In this document: positions 27,193 to 33,364 of the stretch, piece by piece | Numbering within the stretch: the stretch's first letter is position 1 | Layout of the letters: each line of letters starts with the position of its first letter | Sequence record: OK148440 | Reading direction: 5' to 3' (one strand) | DNA from: Escherichia phage MLP3 | Length of the DNA stretch: 64,000 nt | The notes under the pieces: generated by a model | The model's database searches: none | Told to the model about the DNA's origin: nothing | Seen by the model: only the letters and a program-made list of their open reading frames with translations | Position numbers and translations under genes: made by a program

Positions 27193-27212
27193 ACAACCTC
27201 TTCTTTGAGCTT

Positions 27213-27237
27213 AAAAAAGGACTCTCCTAAGAGAGCC
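27213..27237 (-). terminator. intrinsic terminator-like hairpin downstream of conserved element R1
   Basis: Minus strand GGCTCTC-TTAG-GAGAGTCC followed by TTTTTT. Confidence 0.45.
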
Positions 27238-27300
27238 AAGCTTTAAGGCCAATTAAATAGATATCACCCAATATCTGTGGATAACCTGCTCTTAAAATAT

Positions 27301-27436
27301 TCTATCCGACGGATGTTCGAGGATTATTCCTCTCCCTAGCATCGGCCCCATACGGGAAAGATTAAATTAAGTTTAGGTTAGTTGAGCCAGAATAGCTCAC
27401 ATAGCCCTCTGATACTCACAAGGGCTATAGATGTTA
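27301..27436 (-). promoter_or_regulatory. conserved ~130-nt element R1 with 8-bp hairpin (copy 1 of 2)
   Basis: About 70 percent identical to 32598..32722; shared blocks TCTATC, TCTCCCTAGC, CTCACATAGCCCTCTGATA-N-CACAAG-GCTATA; hairpin 27401-27408/27421-27428. Confidence 0.5.
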
Positions 27437-27682
27437 CTCTGTGGCTCCGTCGAATCGGAGGATTGCTGCTGGAACAGGGTATACTTCCAGATCTTCATCC
27501 AGTCGGTATAGATGCCCTGTACTTAAATTTACAGCTGTTACTGGCTTAGAGTGGCCTCCAGCCTGTATGGAAGGAACTCTGATAAAGAACTCTTCTGGAT
27601 ATTCAACAGAGTGGAACACACTTCCTGAATAAAGATCTTTTATTTTAGAAGTTTGTTTAGGAGTTTTATCAGCAATTTTCAT
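27434..27682 (-). CDS. small protein, paralog family B (L-x-DL-x-PG-x-VF core)
   Basis: MKI...KDLYSGSVFHSVEYPEEFF; family also at 28803, 29073, 32721, 32946. Confidence 0.5.
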   Translation of the reverse strand: MKIADKTPKQTSKIKDLYSGSVFHSVEYPEEFFIRVPSIQAGGHSKPVTAVNLSTGHLYRLDEDLEVYPVPAAILRFDGATE

Positions 27683-27915
27683 TACAGACCTTTCTTAGCA
27701 CGATCTTTGGCAGTTTTGCCAGTGCGGATACGATGGGAAACATTAACCAGCTCGCCACCTTCGACGATGGTTACGCTTTTGTTTTTCGCAATATCAAACA
27801 CAGTTTTCTCTGTGCCGCCCAGACGAATCTGTTTAGGCTCACTGTGGGTCTGAGTTGATTTAGACTGGAACTGGAACGGCTGACGGATGGCATCAATTGC
27901 GCTAACTTTAGACAT
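27682..27915 (-). CDS. hypothetical protein
   Basis: 77-aa ORF. Confidence 0.45.
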   Translation of the reverse strand: MSKVSAIDAIRQPFQFQSKSTQTHSEPKQIRLGGTEKTVFDIAKNKSVTIVEGGELVNVSHRIRTGKTAKDRAKKGL

Positions 27916-27943
27916 GTTTTTATTACCTTACATTAAAGAGAGA

Positions 27944-28357
27944 TTAAACAACGAATTGGAACGCTTCGTATCCAAACTTATATAAGAAATCGTGTTTGAA
28001 CTTCGTTACACGACCACGGTCACGGAAAGATTTCAGACGGTTACTGAACCCAGCCATCGGCTCAGGGTCAATAGGACTACGAATCTTCATAGCTACAGAG
28101 TGCAGCTTGAAGCGCTTACCAGTGCTACATGCCATCATCACATACTCCATACGAGTAGTCCAGATGTTAAGCACCATACTTGTTTTCTCCGCTGACCAAC
28201 CAGTCTTGCGGGCGATTTCCTTATGGATGTTAAGCTCCAAAGGAAGTGGGAATTGCTTGTTGAATGAAGCCGGATAGAGTTTGACCAGAAGATCAATGTT
28301 TTCTTTATACGTTAAGTAAGCTAATTTCTTGCTTACGTTGGGGAATTTCCCAGACAT
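27944..28357 (-). CDS. ProQ/FinO-domain RNA-binding protein (tentative)
   Basis: N-terminal region LVKLYPASF...PLPLELNIHKEIARKTGWSAEKTSMVLNIWTTRMEY resembles the ProQ/FinO domain. Confidence 0.45.
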   Translation of the reverse strand: MSGKFPNVSKKLAYLTYKENIDLLVKLYPASFNKQFPLPLELNIHKEIARKTGWSAEKTSMVLNIWTTRMEYVMMACSTGKRFKLHSVAMKIRSPIDPEPMAGFSNRLKSFRDRGRVTKFKHDFLYKFGYEAFQFVV

Positions 28358-28390
28358 TTTTGAAGCTCCAAAACAGCGCCGAAAAGAGAG

Positions 28391-28432
28391 GCGTCATAGT
28401 AGCTAAAAGGAGGAGAGAAGAGGGCTTATTTA
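28391..28432 (-). promoter_or_regulatory. bipartite conserved motif GCGTCATAGTAG-N13-AGAAGAGGGCTTAYTTA (copy A)
   Basis: Second copy at 34508..34550; both preceded by a short hairpin; located just upstream (minus sense) of the ProQ-like gene. Confidence 0.4.
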
Positions 28433-28555
28433 CTTGCCTTTTTCTGTCCGTTAATGTACCAGATAACTGAACCGTCAGGCTGTCGTTGACCGAAGCCTTT
28501 CAAGTTAACCATTTCTTCTTCAGAGTAGGCACGTTTTCTCACTGATTTTCTCCTG

Positions 28556-28813
28556 TCAGTAGAAGGTGTGTGTAGAGTCGTCGTTCATAGATAACCAAAC
28601 GAAGAAGACAATCACACAGAAAGCAATAACACCGAGAATTGCAAGGATTATAGTGTTAGCTAATGTGATATCTAACACGCTTTGCAGATACATAAAGAAC
28701 TGTACGACACCACATACCATCAGCACAACCCCAACGACAATGAGGAGCCAATATGTGCAGAGAAGGACTGCATCTAATAGTGATACATACTTTGGATGAT
28801 CTTTATGTCTCAC
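28556..28813 (-). CDS. membrane protein
   Basis: Several hydrophobic helices (LLCTYWLLIVVGVVLMVCGVV; ILAILGVIAFCVIVFFVWL). Confidence 0.45.
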   Translation of the reverse strand: MRHKDHPKYVSLLDAVLLCTYWLLIVVGVVLMVCGVVQFFMYLQSVLDITLANTIILAILGVIAFCVIVFFVWLSMNDDSTHTFY

Positions 28814-29069
28814 TGATCTTTTCCACTAAATCCAGAGTTGCTGATTCAAATACAACACCAACTACCATATTAGGTGCCATATTACGAACGTATCCGCTCT
28901 GCATAGACACGGCCCGAGAGTATTCAGAACCGTTAGAACTTTTGTTTACCTTCATGTAAAGGGTTTGCTCTTTATCTTCTTTCAGAGTAAAGAAAGAGCC
29001 GGGAAGAAGCCTCTGAACAGTCAGAGGGATATCTGCAACATGAGTCTTATTGATAGTAAGAACTGTCAT
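28803..29069 (-). CDS. small protein, paralog family B (divergent)
   Basis: LLPGSFFTLKEDKEQTLYMKV matches family core. Confidence 0.45.
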   Translation of the reverse strand: MTVLTINKTHVADIPLTVQRLLPGSFFTLKEDKEQTLYMKVNKSSNGSEYSRAVSMQSGYVRNMAPNMVVGVVFESATLDLVEKISET

Positions 29070-29072
29070 TGC

Positions 29073-29327
29073 TTATTCCTTAATAGTTGCTTCAGCTTTA
29101 ATAGGAATAACAGCAACATCTTTACGAGGTGCTGTCGCTCGACCTGTGTTAAGGCAGGCTACAAGTCTATGCTCGTCCGCACCCTTGATGCAGAGTCGAG
29201 TTGAGAACTCAGTAGACAGCAAGATGTACAAATCATCATCTTCACTGTTAGGGTACATGAAGCAATCCCCAAGTCGTAAAGCACTGAGAGGTATTGCACT
29301 CTTACCTGCTGGTTTATTAACTTTCAT
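29073..29327 (-). CDS. small protein, paralog family B
   Basis: LSALRLGDCFMYPNSEDDDLYILL matches family core. Confidence 0.5.
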   Translation of the reverse strand: MKVNKPAGKSAIPLSALRLGDCFMYPNSEDDDLYILLSTEFSTRLCIKGADEHRLVACLNTGRATAPRKDVAVIPIKAEATIKE

Positions 29328-29603
29328 TTTACCACCTTTAGTTATGGACCAATTTATGAGAGAACTCTCGGAAGAATGCTTTCATAAATAGGGGGAGGGG
29401 ACGAATCCTCCCATATCCTATTAATTAATATTGCATGTAAGATCTAACAATTCGATGCTGTAGTGGATAGCGTAAAACGCTTACCGGCATTAAACCCAGC
29501 CCATGAGGGGCTTATGTGAATAAAATGCTCAACATTGAGCGGTTAGTTGATAGGAGATCTGAAGTCCTATCTCAAAGGACTCTCGTAAGAATCCTTCACG
29601 ATA

Positions 29604-29870
29604 TTACTTAGTAATAAAGACTGTCACCTTATCCATTACCCAGCCTATCAGCATAAGGAAAGGTAAGAAGAGGATAAAGATCAGCATAAAAGGCCAGAAG
29701 AATATCACCGTCCAAATAGAGTATTCATCAGGCTTACCACTCCATGAGGAATGGAAGAAGTTGTAGAGTGTATTGGTTTTGAAGCACCATTTAACTACAA
29801 TGGCTGCCAACCACCAACCAATAACATAAATCAGGAGGACATACGCTGCTGTAACCATTGACCGTTCCAT
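29604..29870 (-). CDS. membrane protein
   Basis: Hydrophobic helices throughout 88-aa ORF. Confidence 0.45.
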   Translation of the reverse strand: MERSMVTAAYVLLIYVIGWWLAAIVVKWCFKTNTLYNFFHSSWSGKPDEYSIWTVIFFWPFMLIFILFLPFLMLIGWVMDKVTVFITK

Positions 29871-30085
29871 TGATAGTTGCGAGTTACCACGTTTCCGTGG
29901 ATAAGAAAGTGCTGGCGGCGAAGGATATCTTTAACGTTGTAATAGGCAGCGTTACCGAGATGGCCTTCTTTGATAAGCCAACGAAGATTACGAATATCAA
30001 CCAACAGCATTTTTACTTGCTGTTGGCATGAAGTTTGAGCTGCTGTTTCAAGTAGAGCTTTCGTATCAGAATAATGACCGGACAT
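29831..30085 (-). CDS. hypothetical protein
   Basis: 84-aa ORF. Confidence 0.4.
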   Translation of the reverse strand: MSGHYSDTKALLETAAQTSCQQQVKMLLVDIRNLRWLIKEGHLGNAAYYNVKDILRRQHFLIHGNVVTRNYQWNGQWLQQRMSS

Positions 30086-30086
30086 A

Positions 30087-30419
30087 TCACCACTCCTTAC
30101 CTGTTGTTGTCACAGAGCCACCACACAGCTCACCACGGGAGATGAAGTCATAACGTGACCAATCACCTTGGGTAGCCATATCACGATCTGCATAAGCTTT
30201 CTCGTCAACAGCACCGCCATTGGAACAAGAAGCACCGGCATAACGTATATCAACCTCACCACTAGGAATCTTCTCCCCGCTATGCCAACGGGAAACACAG
30301 ACACCTTCTACAGATAATGCACACCATCCATCAGGACGATGCTGTACACAGCCTGTAAGAGCTACACAGGCGATAAAGATACAGGTTAAGGTAATTACAC
30401 CACCCCAACTCATAAGCAC
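30087..30419 (-). CDS. putative lipoprotein
   Basis: Signal peptide ending in lipobox LTGC (ACVALTGC). Confidence 0.5.
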   Translation of the reverse strand: MLMSWGGVITLTCIFIACVALTGCVQHRPDGWCALSVEGVCVSRWHSGEKIPSGEVDIRYAGASCSNGGAVDEKAYADRDMATQGDWSRYDFISRGELCGGSVTTTGKEW

Positions 30420-30430
30420 CTCCTATTTGA

Positions 30431-30520
30431 TTTGGTGGACTATCTGGAATCGAACCAGAAGCTCACTAAGAAAGCAATTCCCACTGTTATAAAAGCACTT
30501 GCCTCAACAGGGATACACTA
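30431..30520 (-). ncRNA. tRNA-like element (non-canonical; possible second tRNA or pseudo-tRNA)
   Basis: Minus-strand sense ends ...TCTGG-TTCGATT-CCAGA-TAGTCCACCA (canonical T-arm and CCA-like end) but no canonical acceptor/D/anticodon fold found by eye. Confidence 0.3.
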
Positions 30521-30551
30521 ACTCTGGTGCCGTACCCATACTAGCCCTAAA

Positions 30552-30627
30552 TGTGGTGCACCCTACAGGACTCGAACCTGTAACCAACGACTTAGAAGGT
30601 CGCTGCTCTGTCCGTTGAGCTAAGGGT
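30552..30627 (-). tRNA. tRNA-Arg (anticodon UCU)
   Basis: 76-nt cloverleaf folded by hand: acceptor GCACCCT/AGGGTGC, D-stem GCTC/GAGC, anticodon stem GCGAC/GTCGT with loop CTTCTAA, T-arm ACAGG-TTCGAGT-CCTGT, encoded CCA. Confidence 0.9.
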
Positions 30628-30638
30628 GCTGAATTTGT

Positions 30639-30848
30639 TTAACTGAAGATACGCAAGGCCACATCGTGACCGATATGACCGGGAACTTTATGCTGTTCTA
30701 TTTTCAAACAGTGTTTACAGATACGAGATACACGAGATTCTTTTCTCTCTACTGGAGTGTCTTTAGCGTGAGTGATATGTAAGTTTTCAGTGACCACCCA
30801 TTCATGTTTACATCCAGAATCTTCGGGCTTTTTCTTACGAAAGAACAT
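30639..30848 (-). CDS. small zinc-ribbon protein
   Basis: CKHEW...CKHC Cys/His pairs. Confidence 0.45.
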   Translation of the reverse strand: MFFRKKKPEDSGCKHEWVVTENLHITHAKDTPVERKESRVSRICKHCLKIEQHKVPGHIGHDVALRIFS

Positions 30849-30856
30849 AACACCCC

Positions 30857-31021
30857 TTAGATCAGATCTGTTTTCTTGTGCTTACCACACACTTTACAGC
30901 GGGAATAGATACGCAACCCCTGTCGCTCTCCTCCAGCAAGACGATGTGTAACCTTCAATTCATAAGTAGAAAGATCTTCCCACTCATGGAAATGAAAGAG
31001 ACGCTTGAACCATTTAATCAT
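30857..31021 (-). CDS. small zinc-ribbon protein (54 aa), paralog of 31031..31216
   Basis: MIKWFKRLFHFHEW...CKVCGKH parallels MIKWLKRVFHCHDW...CKVCGDV; below ORF-track cutoff. Confidence 0.4.
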   Translation of the reverse strand: MIKWFKRLFHFHEWEDLSTYELKVTHRLAGGERQGLRIYSRCKVCGKHKKTDLI

Positions 31022-31030
31022 AATGATTCC

Positions 31031-31216
31031 TTAGATTACATCACGATGACTAACATCACCACACACCTTACACTGAATAACGTAACGTGTGCCCTTGTCA
31101 TTGTTCCCATCTGAATCTGTATAGACCAGAGGACGGGTGTTAATAATCTTCCAATCATGACAATGGAAGACACGCTTTAGCCATTTAATCATACTAAGCA
31201 CACGCCGGTAATTCAA
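31031..31216 (-). CDS. small zinc-ribbon protein
   Basis: HCHDW...CKVCGD motif. Confidence 0.45.
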   Translation of the reverse strand: MNYRRVLSMIKWLKRVFHCHDWKIINTRPLVYTDSDGNNDKGTRYVIQCKVCGDVSHRDVI

Positions 31217-31451
31217 TTAACTGAGGAGTACGACAAGGGCCATCCTCATACACACCTACTAGTGTTGGCATGTAAGGCCCAGCGCACTGGTATTCATCGA
31301 ACAGTTCATTGTAAGTAGGCTTCCACTTCCAAGCCCACACATAACCCATTCGATCAATGGCAATGTAACGAGTGTTCAGAGGAACCTGCATCATCACATC
31401 ACCAACTGCTATTACTTTCGTAATAACTACTGCTCGGAAGTTTGTCTTCAT
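31194..31451 (-). CDS. hypothetical protein
   Basis: 85-aa ORF. Confidence 0.45.
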   Translation of the reverse strand: MKTNFRAVVITKVIAVGDVMMQVPLNTRYIAIDRMGYVWAWKWKPTYNELFDEYQCAGPYMPTLVGVYEDGPCRTPQLIELPACA

Positions 31452-31756
31452 GACTTTGCAGCCTCCATCATTTTATTCATTTTAGCCACACCTTTACGGA
31501 TAAGAGGCATAAATTCATCAGCCAGTTCAGTGGATAAAAGTTTAAGCCCGCCTGATTTAATACCGTTCACCGCCTTCTCAACTTCATCCGACAGCAATGT
31601 CATTGTTAACCACGGGGATTTTATTACCACAGTAAAGCCTGGTTCATACCGCGAGTGACTGTAGGTGAACTCTAAATGAGTAACACCGGGCATCTTAGAC
31701 ATTTGAGCACGGATATCTACATTAGGGTTGCAGCGAGTTGAAGATGAAATTGTCAT
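31448..31756 (-). CDS. hypothetical protein
   Basis: 102-aa ORF. Confidence 0.5.
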   Translation of the reverse strand: MTISSSTRCNPNVDIRAQMSKMPGVTHLEFTYSHSRYEPGFTVVIKSPWLTMTLLSDEVEKAVNGIKSGGLKLLSTELADEFMPLIRKGVAKMNKMMEAAKS

Positions 31757-32094
31757 GGCGCTTTAATCTCAATCTGAACGTTGACGACGAATACAGTATG
31801 GTTTGCACTGTACACTGAAGTGCCTATGATTGGCTTATCATCACTGAGGATTTCAACAGCGTGCTCAAGGTTAATCTTCAGATGAAGACGCCCTGATTCC
31901 ATGAAGAAATCACCAGCACGTATCTCACCGAACTTAGCTGGCACACCGATAGAGGGTATCAGTATGTCAGTGCGACCTTTACGGTCAAATAAACGATTGA
32001 ACATATCAACCTCTCTTGTTAGTTTAAGTAAGAGTTGTCCCTTAATTAAAACAACAAAGGCCACCCCTAAGGGCAGCCTCTTATTTAAGCGCAA
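31753..32094 (-). CDS. hypothetical protein
   Basis: 113-aa ORF. Confidence 0.5.
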   Translation of the reverse strand: MRLNKRLPLGVAFVVLIKGQLLLKLTREVDMFNRLFDRKGRTDILIPSIGVPAKFGEIRAGDFFMESGRLHLKINLEHAVEILSDDKPIIGTSVYSANHTVFVVNVQIEIKAP

Positions 32095-32300
32095 GCACTA
32101 CGCAGTTTGTTATTCAAGAAGCGATCTTCTGCATTATACAGGAATGCATAGAACAACTCTTTTGCTACATCCCGATCGCAATTGAGACATTTAGAGATCT
32201 GTAACAACAAACCATCACGACTATTAGGATGATCAATTATCGCAAGACGAATAATCTCACGAATACCAATGTCATGCTCAGCCGCCATAGAACCAATCAC
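32085..32300 (-). CDS. hypothetical protein
   Basis: 71-aa ORF. Confidence 0.45.
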   Translation of the reverse strand: MIGSMAAEHDIGIREIIRLAIIDHPNSRDGLLLQISKCLNCDRDVAKELFYAFLYNAEDRFLNNKLRSACA

Positions 32301-32457
32301 CCTGACGTTTACGAATGTTAGTTGTCAGACGAAGCATGGCAGACTCAATCTTCAAAGCACCATTTGCTACTGCATCCATACGTTCAGGACGGTTCATACG
32401 TTTGGTTGTCTTTTTCATAATGTTCTCTCTTTATTGATGGAGGCAGGATTGCCAGTT

Positions 32458-32493
32458 AATATAAAGGGAAGCCCTACACGTTAAGGCTTCCGC
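32458..32493 (-). terminator. intrinsic terminator-like hairpin downstream of conserved element R2
   Basis: Minus strand GGAAGCC-loop-GGCTTCC (7 bp) followed by CTTTATATT. Confidence 0.45.
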
Positions 32494-32597
32494 TTGTACA
32501 AACTGTCGAGAACTCTCTACCCCTAGAATGTTCTCTATCCCAAACCGATACATACCCCTACATATCGGAATGCCATTCGAAAATTAACAGGTTTTAG

Positions 32598-32722
32598 TCT
32601 ATCACCGGATGTTTGAGACAAGTCTCTCCCTAGCGGTGAGCCATATGGCGTTGAGATTATAGTTAATTGAGGAACACCCTCACATAGCCCTCTGATAAAC
32701 ACAAGAGCTATAAGTCGATGTT
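32598..32722 (-). promoter_or_regulatory. conserved ~130-nt element R2 with hairpin (copy 2 of 2)
   Basis: Homolog of 27301..27436; hairpin 32684-32691/32704-32711; the single stem mismatch on the plus strand becomes a G-U pair in minus-sense RNA. Confidence 0.5.
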
Positions 32723-32945
32723 ACTTGTTGGTTAGTCGTGCGTTAGGTACAGGTCTGACTACAGTCGATTTACACTCAGAATCACGCTTACCTGTATAAA
32801 GGTTAACAAAATAACTTTTGTTTTCACCATAACACGCAGTACGCATGTAGTATTGAGTTTCATTGTAGTTAAACTGGAAGACTTCACCCGGATTTAGGTC
32901 TCCGAGAGTTACAACCTCTGGCGTACTATCAATGTCAATCTTCAT
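32721..32945 (-). CDS. small protein, paralog family B
   Basis: MKI...LGDLNPGEVFQFNYNETQYYM. Confidence 0.5.
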   Translation of the reverse strand: MKIDIDSTPEVVTLGDLNPGEVFQFNYNETQYYMRTACYGENKSYFVNLYTGKRDSECKSTVVRPVPNARLTNK

Positions 32946-33176
32946 TTAACCACCAATATTAGTCACTTGAACATCAAATACAGGGATAACTTCATGATGT
33001 TCCTGTAACTGGAATAGTGTTCCCTGACGAAGACCAACCACACGATGCATATCATTCAGGCAGGTGTCTGTCTTTAGATAGAGGTGTTCAGAGTTAGTTG
33101 GTAGACGGAATACATCACCCGGACGTAGATCGCTGAGTTTTTTAGTAACAACTAAAGATGGGAGATTAATTTTCAT
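32946..33176 (-). CDS. small protein, paralog family B
   Basis: MKI...LSDLRPGDVFRLPTNSEHLYL. Confidence 0.5.
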   Translation of the reverse strand: MKINLPSLVVTKKLSDLRPGDVFRLPTNSEHLYLKTDTCLNDMHRVVGLRQGTLFQLQEHHEVIPVFDVQVTNIGG

Positions 33177-33364
33177 TTGATTAACACCAAATCAGTACGA
33201 CGTTCGAAGGAAGGGGAGGATTCACCATTCCACTGAACAAGATAACAGAGAACACCATCAATCGTTGTTCTCCGACGAATAACACCTGTAACAGTTCCAC
33301 CAACAAGGCGAACGGTGTCGCCAACGGTAAATTTAACCTTTGATCGCATCTCCTGTTTCCTCAT
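33173..33364 (-). CDS. hypothetical protein
   Basis: 63-aa ORF. Confidence 0.45.
   Translation of the reverse strand: MRKQEMRSKVKFTVGDTVRLVGGTVTGVIRRRTTIDGVLCYLVQWNGESSPSFERRTDLVLIK

Follow-up and report, generated by a model that had tools for sequence, protein, structure and literature searches.

Five small paralogous genes, and a sixth counted as their divergent member, were characterised computationally in a 64,000-nt stretch of Escherichia phage MLP3 (sequence record OK148440), referred to below as the window. Their products belong to a family of ~75- to 90-residue single-domain proteins that are predicted to fold as SH3-like five-stranded beta-barrels. The five, designated A to E (Table 1), had been grouped as paralogues in an original prediction made from the sequence alone, which took their multiplicity as a sign of a selected, diversifying function. 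Our preferred reading, which is tentative and judged to fall somewhat short of an even chance, is that they are non-enzymatic, non-toxic protein-binding modules, each paralogue having its own, probably host, growth-dispensable partner.

Family members in the window

All five open reading frames (ORFs) of the original prediction were confirmed, with their coordinates, on the minus strand. Each has either a plausible ribosome-binding site or coupling to the upstream gene: AAGGA precedes B, GGTGG precedes C, and the start of E overlaps the stop codon of the gene before it (ATGA). The two tandem pairs were also confirmed, B and C being separated by 3 nt and D and E abutting directly (TAAATG). Pairwise identity among A to E is just 18-30%, with six invariant columns (M1, L17, G20, F23, G56 and V67 in the numbering of A). 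The core L-x-DL-x-PG-(D/E)-VF, first described as common to the five, is present as a complete string only in D and E and is degenerate in A (IKDLYSGSVF), B (VQRLLPGSFF) and C (LSALRLGDCF).

When all 760 stop-to-stop segments of the window were searched by phmmer with protein E as the query, the top four matches were D (E-value 7e-5), A (0.0018), C (0.0073) and B (0.059). Hidden Markov models (HMMs) built with one member left out recovered the omitted protein as the best non-training match in every case, with E-values of 3.4e-11 for E, 6e-7 for A, 6.9e-7 for D and 2.5e-4 for both B and C; the next window segment stood at an E-value of at least 0.13. The family HMM scores A at 2e-23 and B at 8.8e-23. 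An HMM from 122 distant non-kuravirus relatives retrieved exactly A to E (5e-21 to 9e-16), a test with some circularity, since the family profile had itself been used to collect the relatives. Single-sequence comparisons with the wider family by hhalign gave probabilities of 98-99.5% for all five, and the window members cross-match one another's PHROG profiles. A single paralogous family, as first proposed, is borne out by the leave-one-out values, the PHROG cross-matches and the hhalign probabilities.

The original count of five proved short by one. ORF 31753-32097 was the top non-member in every family scan. A profile of the five orthologues of this sixth protein aligned with the family profile along the entire domain, across 56 columns (hhalign 94.7%, P 5.8e-8), and as a single sequence it was the best non-member of 475 window segments (P 5.3e-5; next 1.2e-3). 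Its motifs read FGEIRAGDFF ... LHLKI ... VFVVNVQIEI, and at G-D-F-F the surrounding nucleotides can be aligned with those that encode the motif in D and E (repeat D1). The best counterpart in phage phiEco32 is gp109, itself a family member in the equivalent position. Gene callers give the protein 83 residues from an ATG at 32004, and a terminator-like hairpin lies at 32081-32056, within the 113-aa version of the ORF that begins at TTG; the start is therefore placed at the ATG, and the longer version is probably too long. On these sequence comparisons, the gene is counted as a divergent sixth member of the family.

Predicted fold and conserved positions

An AlphaFold2 model of protein E, made from a 32-sequence alignment, has a mean predicted local distance difference test score (pLDDT) of 83.7 and a predicted template modelling score (pTM) of 0.69. 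It contains five beta-strands and no helix of four or more residues. The predicted model is a five-stranded barrel of ~60-80 residues that superposes on solved SH3-like domains. Foldseek searches of the Protein Data Bank (PDB) agree on the fold class but returned no match at an E-value of 0.001 or below; the top structural neighbours there are RNA-binding SH3-like domains (uL2, EF-P/eIF5A, the KOW domain of Spt5, and a PWWP domain with single-stranded DNA). Against predicted viral structures, Foldseek gave 26 matches at an E-value of 0.001 or below. These come from kuraviruses, N4 (Gp21) and Serratia, Proteus, Morganella, Klebsiella, Erwinia and Vibrio phages, and every one is a small protein that is either uncharacterised or named doubtfully. 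Note that a kuravirus member in EcoN5 (77 aa) is labelled "Endolysin" in UniProt, a name probably carried over by mistake.

Conserved columns were taken from an alignment of 102 members and comprise M1, I3, L14, L17, G20, V22, F23, Y33, M/L34, V47, L49, G52, V63 and V66. These positions form the hydrophobic core and the turn glycines, and loops and surface are variable. Insertions cluster after position 40, at the tip of the beta2-beta3 hairpin (mean 2.5 residues per sequence), where the long insertion of C is also located, and in the beta1-beta2 loop. No polar constellation suggestive of catalysis was found among the conserved columns. Because the conserved residues are the core of the barrel and its glycine turns, the motif L..L..G(D/E)(V/C)F / Y(M/L)K / V.L.(T/S)G / V.PV is a fold signature and not an active site. 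Isoelectric points (pI) of the six window proteins range from 5.9 to 7.7; among the 122 relatives the median is 5.9, and 75% carry a net negative charge.

Scans of the window proteins against Pfam, NCBIfam and PADLOC gave nothing above noise. The 102 members scanned likewise matched no Pfam family; neither they nor the window proteins passed the gathering score of an SH3-clan model (SH3_1, SH3_3, KOW, Tudor and others), and the family profile found nothing below an E-value of 0.1 among PDB sequences. The predicted structure of a natural two-domain fusion consists of two well-folded barrels joined by a disordered linker (pTM 0.58). The "Rosetta stone" idea, that tandem pairs act as heterodimers, was dropped on this result.

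Distribution among phages

An exhaustive profile search covering 1.84 billion representatives found 475 clusters (50% identity) at an E-value of 0.001 or below. These are spread across many virulent phages, so the family is not special to this phage. A word-indexed search returned only 39 close relatives, every one on a phage-sized contig, and the contigs of sampled members are all 184 kb or shorter. Nearly all clusters are of 70-90 aa; about ten proteins of 131-161 aa hold two copies of the domain, and one family member bears a C-terminal KTSC domain. Much longer profile matches (3353, 1397, 768, 3153, 1651 and 470 aa) were rejected as summed partial matches to cadherin, RCC1, SH3_3 or unannotated repeats. 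The RpoS-binding PaP3 gp70.1 (131 aa) was considered as a possible two-domain member. As the two-domain relative of that length, P0065, had no match in the phage collection, no link to gp70.1 was made, the gp70.1 sequence itself not having been scanned.

Copy number was compared by HMM in selected parts of related genomes. About nine members were found both in the right-end 20.6 kb of phiEco32 (gp95-98, gp104, gp109 and gp113-115) and in the right-end 27 kb of CHD5UKE1. Four were found in the 8.8-kb locus of SU7, together with the orthologue of the sixth member below threshold, and four in the 45-90 kb portion of Salmonella phage 7-11 (gp110, gp112, gp131 and gp133). E-values of the phiEco32 and 7-11 members range from 1e-15 to 2.5e-4. 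A single member each was detected in the first 22 kb of N4 (gp21, 2.9e-17) and in the first 8 kb, the early region, of LUZ24 (gp7, 1.2e-9). Copy number in these relatives, which the original prediction had singled out for comparison, thus varies from four (SU7 and 7-11) to about nine (phiEco32 and CHD5UKE1), with five plus one here. Searches by tblastn with the family consensus added Vibrio phages of 130-142 kb, Gamaleyavirus, Serratia phage MyoSmar and Erwinia phage TropicalSun.

One tandem pair of members (L003/L004, 5758-6231) was confirmed on an unrelated phage contig of metagenomic origin. On another unrelated phage contig, of 122 kb and from JGI, two adjacent 79-aa genes adjoin a Gad2-like (anti-Gabija) nucleotidyltransferase homologue and a pentapeptide-repeat protein; the queried 79-aa gene is the one of the two confirmed as a member. 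This neighbourhood suggests an accessory or anti-defence setting. In phage 7-11 (24960-26121), the gene annotated as endolysin, gp111, has a member on either side (gp110 and gp112). Fitness data obtained by CRISPRi-ART for PTXU04 were considered and set aside as inapplicable, that phage being a Xuquatrovirus and not a kuravirus.

Evolution among close relatives

Escherichia phages HC-25922 and IME267 match the 27.0-33.5 kb part of the window at 97% identity and ~20 further records do so at 91-97%, out of 107 phage records matched in total. The relative SU7 is classified in the Gordonclarkvirinae, genus Suseptimavirus. Phages of this group are phiEco32-like podophages with prolate heads and genomes of ~76 kb.

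Orthologues were surveyed by tblastn of each paralogue against the phage collection. C is the most conserved member (94-100% identity in 21 records); the same number of records was matched by E (78-100%) and B (68-100%). D is variably present in close relatives, with only 9 of its 28 records at 60% identity or above and 19 below. The 40 records of A fall into two allele classes, 11 at 90% or above and 11 at about 62%, and 18 of Kuravirus type at 35-37%. The ratio of nonsynonymous to synonymous substitution rates (dN/dS) against SU7 orthologues is 0.04-0.19 overall (A 0.08, C 0.04), and therefore these are real, constrained coding genes. That the paralogues are selected, as first proposed, is upheld by these values. 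Diversifying selection, the other half of that proposal, was not seen gene-wide: orthologues are under purifying selection, and C is nearly invariant over its 21 records.

The best phiEco32 counterparts are gp95 for B, gp97 for C, gp115 for E and gp114 or gp104 for D. As the paralogues have separate counterparts, the duplications are older than the split of Suseptimavirus and Kuravirus. The arrays have shrunk or grown since then (gp95-98 in phiEco32 versus C-B here; gp113-115 versus E-D). Recent duplication is not supported, given the low identity among the paralogues and the presence of own Kuravirus counterparts for most of them. Judged from these alignments, the history is one of long retention with occasional loss and allele replacement, and no recent burst of diversifying duplication.

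Function

Small early ORFans make up the largest block of unknown function in the genomes of virulent phages and are the usual site of host-takeover and anti-defence proteins. The region studied here is syntenic with phiEco32 gp91-gp116 and SU7_89-107. Its genes are all on the minus strand and encode hypothetical proteins almost exclusively. The right-arm leftward cluster of phiEco32 forms an early, host-sigma70-dependent class (PMC9965538; PMC8948821). By position and synteny, the family genes would belong to the early class made by host RNA polymerase. A scan of the region for consensus sigma70 sites gave 11, versus 18.9 expected from shuffles, and since there is no enrichment, promoters are not assignable. 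The original interpretation stands in so far as the genes are selected, multi-copy and located in an early region, and falls as regards gene-wide diversifying selection.

We infer protein binding, host targets and one target per paralogue. The reading as protein-binding modules was chosen because a barrel that is non-enzymatic, constant in its core and variable in its loops is combined with acidic-to-neutral charge, an early location and an accessory-like copy number. The barrel would serve as a stable, non-enzymatic scaffold, and its variable surface would bind a partner protein. Exposed strands, the beta1-beta2 loop and above all the tip of the beta2-beta3 hairpin, which differ in sequence or length between paralogues, would make up that surface. 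That partner, distinct for every long-lived paralogue, would most likely be a host protein dispensable for growth, for instance one of defence, stress or regulation, and would be blocked or redirected stoichiometrically. In keeping with this, the charge is unlike that of typical nucleic-acid binders, and the genes behave as accessory ones, with four to about nine copies per genome, a patchy D and two alleles of A. The Gad2-like gene beside the 79-aa member in the 122-kb contig is a further hint from neighbourhood.

A published screen bears on toxicity. Thirteen early proteins of LUZ24 were expressed in Pseudomonas aeruginosa PAO1, and growth was impaired only by gp4, gp6, gp9 and gp11 (PMC4635203). 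The family member gp7 (YP_001671880, 77 aa) was among those screened and was not growth-inhibitory; no construct inhibited E. coli (PMC4635203). This argues against a host-shut-off toxin, whereas anti-defence or subtle modulation still fits. A host-takeover or anti-defence role is plausible. The BASEL study describes Gordonclarkvirinae and a Gamaleyavirus as unusually restriction-resistant while having no known inhibitor, which is context and not evidence (PMC11990801).

Several points weigh against the binding of host proteins. The best fold relatives (uL2, EF-P, KOW, Tudor) are for the most part binders of RNA or of modified peptides, so that the fold alone does not indicate protein inhibition. 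The LUZ24 result concerns one distant homologue in a different host. The disordered linker and the pTM of the two-domain fusion give no support to a defined complex between paired members. Strong purifying selection, the near-invariance of C and the occurrence of the family in phages of hosts as diverse as E. coli, Pseudomonas, Vibrio, Serratia and Erwinia are at least as compatible with a conserved phage-internal role as with an arms race.

Such a role is the main rival, although we consider it somewhat unlikely. In that case the proteins, possibly small chaperones or adaptors, would assist phage proteins of transcription, replication or assembly, with different paralogues attending to different phage partners in place of host targets. 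The low dN/dS values and the constancy of C are what it leads one to expect, as are arrays syntenic between Suseptimavirus and Kuravirus and a family kept across phages with very different hosts, including N4, where gp21 lies among non-structural genes; the non-toxicity of LUZ24 gp7 is equally expected. It agrees less well with the accessory-like features, namely the range of copy numbers, a D that is dispensable in many close relatives and an A that is swapped for a 62%-identical allele, and with the placing of the genes among early-region ORFans, away from replication and morphogenesis genes.

Nucleic-acid-binding barrels (KOW, Tudor, Sm or cold-shock-like), acting on RNA or DNA of host or phage, for instance as RNA chaperones or as partners of the non-coding R elements described below, are improbable. 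Their appeal is that the best structural neighbours are RNA-binding SH3-like domains and that a conserved structured non-coding element directly follows both A and D. However, net charge is neutral to negative in the window members and negative in three quarters of relatives, conserved columns are core and turn positions with no conserved basic or aromatic surface positions, and four of the six members are not adjacent to an R element.

A role as host shut-off toxins, by which the cell would be killed or arrested at an early stage of infection, would suit the early-gene position, where many phage growth inhibitors are encoded (PMC4635203; PMC5035744), but is highly improbable, as LUZ24 gp7 is not among the four proteins inhibitory in PAO1 or PA14, no construct inhibited E. 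coli (PMC4635203), and the family has no catalytic or membrane features. That the shared motif is a chance or compositional artefact of unrelated ORFs, as the low pairwise identity might suggest (some pairs, among them B-C and A-B, are individually non-significant), is refuted by the statistics, with leave-one-out E-values between 3e-11 and 2.5e-4 and the next ORF clearly set apart, PHROG cross-matches and hhalign probabilities, besides the common predicted fold in BFVD relatives and purifying selection.

Non-coding elements and neighbouring genes

Table 1. Coordinates in the window of the six family genes, the R elements and neighbouring features.
Feature	Coordinates	Strand	Product	PHROG match (full length; hmmscan E-value)	Remarks
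A	27434..27682	-	82 aa	phrog_6570 (1.6e-15)	final gene before R element 1
B	28803..29069	-	88 aa	phrog_12612 (2.9e-29)	downstream gene of C-B tandem pair
C	29073..29327	-	84 aa	phrog_7832 (2.3e-21)	first gene past ~270-nt non-coding gap
D	32721..32945	-	74 aa	phrog_9955 (1e-19)	downstream in E-D pair; last before R element 2
E	32946..33176	-	76 aa	phrog_16423 (3.7e-26)	family hub; member modelled
Sixth member	31753..32004	-	83 aa	phrog_22099 (6.2e-42)	divergent
R element 1	27205-27433	-			conserved non-coding; intrinsic terminator 27237-27220
R element 2	32465-32720	-			conserved non-coding; intrinsic terminator 32491-32467
Non-coding gap	29328-29603	-			~270 nt, upstream of C; terminator-like hairpins, e.g. 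at 29412-29393
tRNA-Arg	30554-30629	-	tRNA, anticodon TCT		inside early gene cluster
Small trio, gene 1	30639-30848	-			upstream of tRNA gene
Small trio, gene 2	30857-31021	-			
Small trio, gene 3	31031-31216	-			
Gene upstream of E	33173-33364	-	63 aa		ATGA overlap with E

As the original prediction had it, two members directly precede the R elements: a conserved hairpin begins within about 5-10 nt of the stop codons of A and D. Each element is about 230-255 nt long, opens with the hairpin UAUAGCCCUUGUG...CAGAGGGCUAUGUGAG and closes with an intrinsic terminator. A 16-mer of the R elements, CAGAGGGCTATGTGAG, is found exactly in SU7 (two copies), phiEco32 and CHD5UKE1; in the last two there is one copy per stretch examined, just downstream of a family member. 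For copy 1 the folding energy is -71.7 kcal/mol (z = -2.9 versus shuffles). An Rfam search of the elements found no family, the sole match being a sub-threshold one to STnc100 (21 bits, versus a gathering score of 47). The R elements are candidates for a structured 3' untranslated region or a phage small RNA.

The non-coding gap upstream of C contains terminator-like hairpins such as GGGAGGATTCGTCCCCTCCC, and the SU7 record carries a promoter annotation, made by its depositors, immediately upstream of the orthologue of C. The gap is probably a transcription-unit boundary. The position of the tRNA-Arg gene is kept in SU7, phiEco32 and CHD5UKE1. Just upstream of it lies a small paralogous trio encoding proteins of 54-69 aa, which have the pattern (K)-x5-H-x-W ... 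T-x2-L ... R ... C-K-x-C in common and are 31-42% identical. Two of the three are linked by a 43-nt DNA repeat of 84% identity, and the trio may be a zinc-ribbon-like family.

Translation of the 63-aa protein upstream of E is coupled to that of E by the ATGA overlap. The protein has a KOW/Tudor-like look (FTVGDTVRLVGG..G.I) and gives weak, sub-threshold Pfam hints to beta-barrel domains. It was not placed in the family by hhalign and, from its residues, may be another small barrel of a different family.

Comparison with known systems

Likeness to characterised SH3-like domains is one of fold class only. The domains compared (C-terminal uL2, domain I of EF-P/eIF5A, KOW, Tudor/PWWP, FeoA, the C-terminal SH3 of DtxR, the Tudor-like domains of CarD and the UvrD C-terminal domain that bind RNA polymerase, and VapX) share 5-17% identity with the family and give no sequence-profile match. 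The conserved columns of the family lack the KOW glycine motif, an aromatic cage and a proline-binding groove. The family was also compared with the bacterial SH3b domains (Pfam SH3_3) of cell-wall hydrolases: the family profile weakly, repeatedly and partially matches SH3_3 repeats in a 1397-aa lysozyme, and the G-x-x-F hairpin is similar. These partial matches are consistent with a remote SH3 relationship. In contrast to SH3b, the family lacks both a signal peptide and a setting among cell-wall enzymes, and none of the 102 members reaches a Pfam SH3 model.

Chaperones of the Sm/Hfq type are distinguished by an N-terminal helix with a bent five-stranded sheet, Sm1 and Sm2 motifs and a basic RNA-binding face, a combination absent from the family. 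Nor did the family show the marks of SH3-like antitoxins of the VapX type, namely an adjoining cognate toxin gene (VapD) together with a relationship in sequence. Comparison with known anti-defence proteins (anti-CRISPR proteins, anti-restriction-modification proteins such as Ocr and ArdA, Gad, Tad and others) gave no match in sequence or fold to a characterised inhibitor.

Fynomers are engineered SH3 binders in which, as a case of a loop-diversified scaffold, a constant small barrel core with diversified loops yields different binding specificities. Fyn SH3 and Fynomer complexes are among the Foldseek fold matches, and variation and indels in the family are likewise concentrated in loops; the likeness is a functional analogy only, implying neither homology nor evidence. 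A more far-reaching reading sees the family as a set of SH3-like "mini-antibodies", a binder library carried by the phage on a scaffold whose loops have diversified naturally. Different host proteins of immunity or stress would be neutralised by different paralogues or alleles, and the repertoire would be retuned by array expansion, allele swapping and gene fusion. We regard this as quite unlikely. If true, it could contribute to the unexplained broad resistance to restriction-modification and other defences that the BASEL study reports for Gordonclarkvirinae and N4-like phages (PMC11990801).

The proteins already have records as PHROGs 6570, 7431, 7832, 8365, 9955, 12612, 16423 and 22099, all of "unknown function"; each window protein matches its own group and cross-matches several. 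Whereas PHROGs keeps these groups separate and unannotated, they form here one superfamily with a common predicted SH3-like fold, including the divergent phrog_22099. N4 gp21, LUZ24 gp7 and the phiEco32 and 7-11 members, which are early or middle proteins, have the same size, the MK(I/V) start and the same position among non-structural ORFans. Copy number differs: N4 (first 22 kb) and the LUZ24 early region have a single member each, compared with five plus one here and about nine in phiEco32. No function has been assigned to any of these model-phage members, the sole experimental datum being that LUZ24 gp7 is not growth-inhibitory (PMC4635203). Although uncatalogued, the family is of an ordinary sort among the accessory genes of phages; nothing in it is strongly surprising, and it is a candidate new domain family missing from Pfam. 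Tractable systems in which to find partners are N4, LUZ24 and the BASEL kuraviruses Bas86-88. Should these partners prove to be defence proteins, the barrel would amount to a reusable inhibitor scaffold, whereas phage partners would make it a conserved regulatory module. In either case, several PHROGs and the N4, LUZ24 and phiEco32 genes are united in one SH3-like family of at least 475 clusters, which provides a single handle on many hypothetical proteins.

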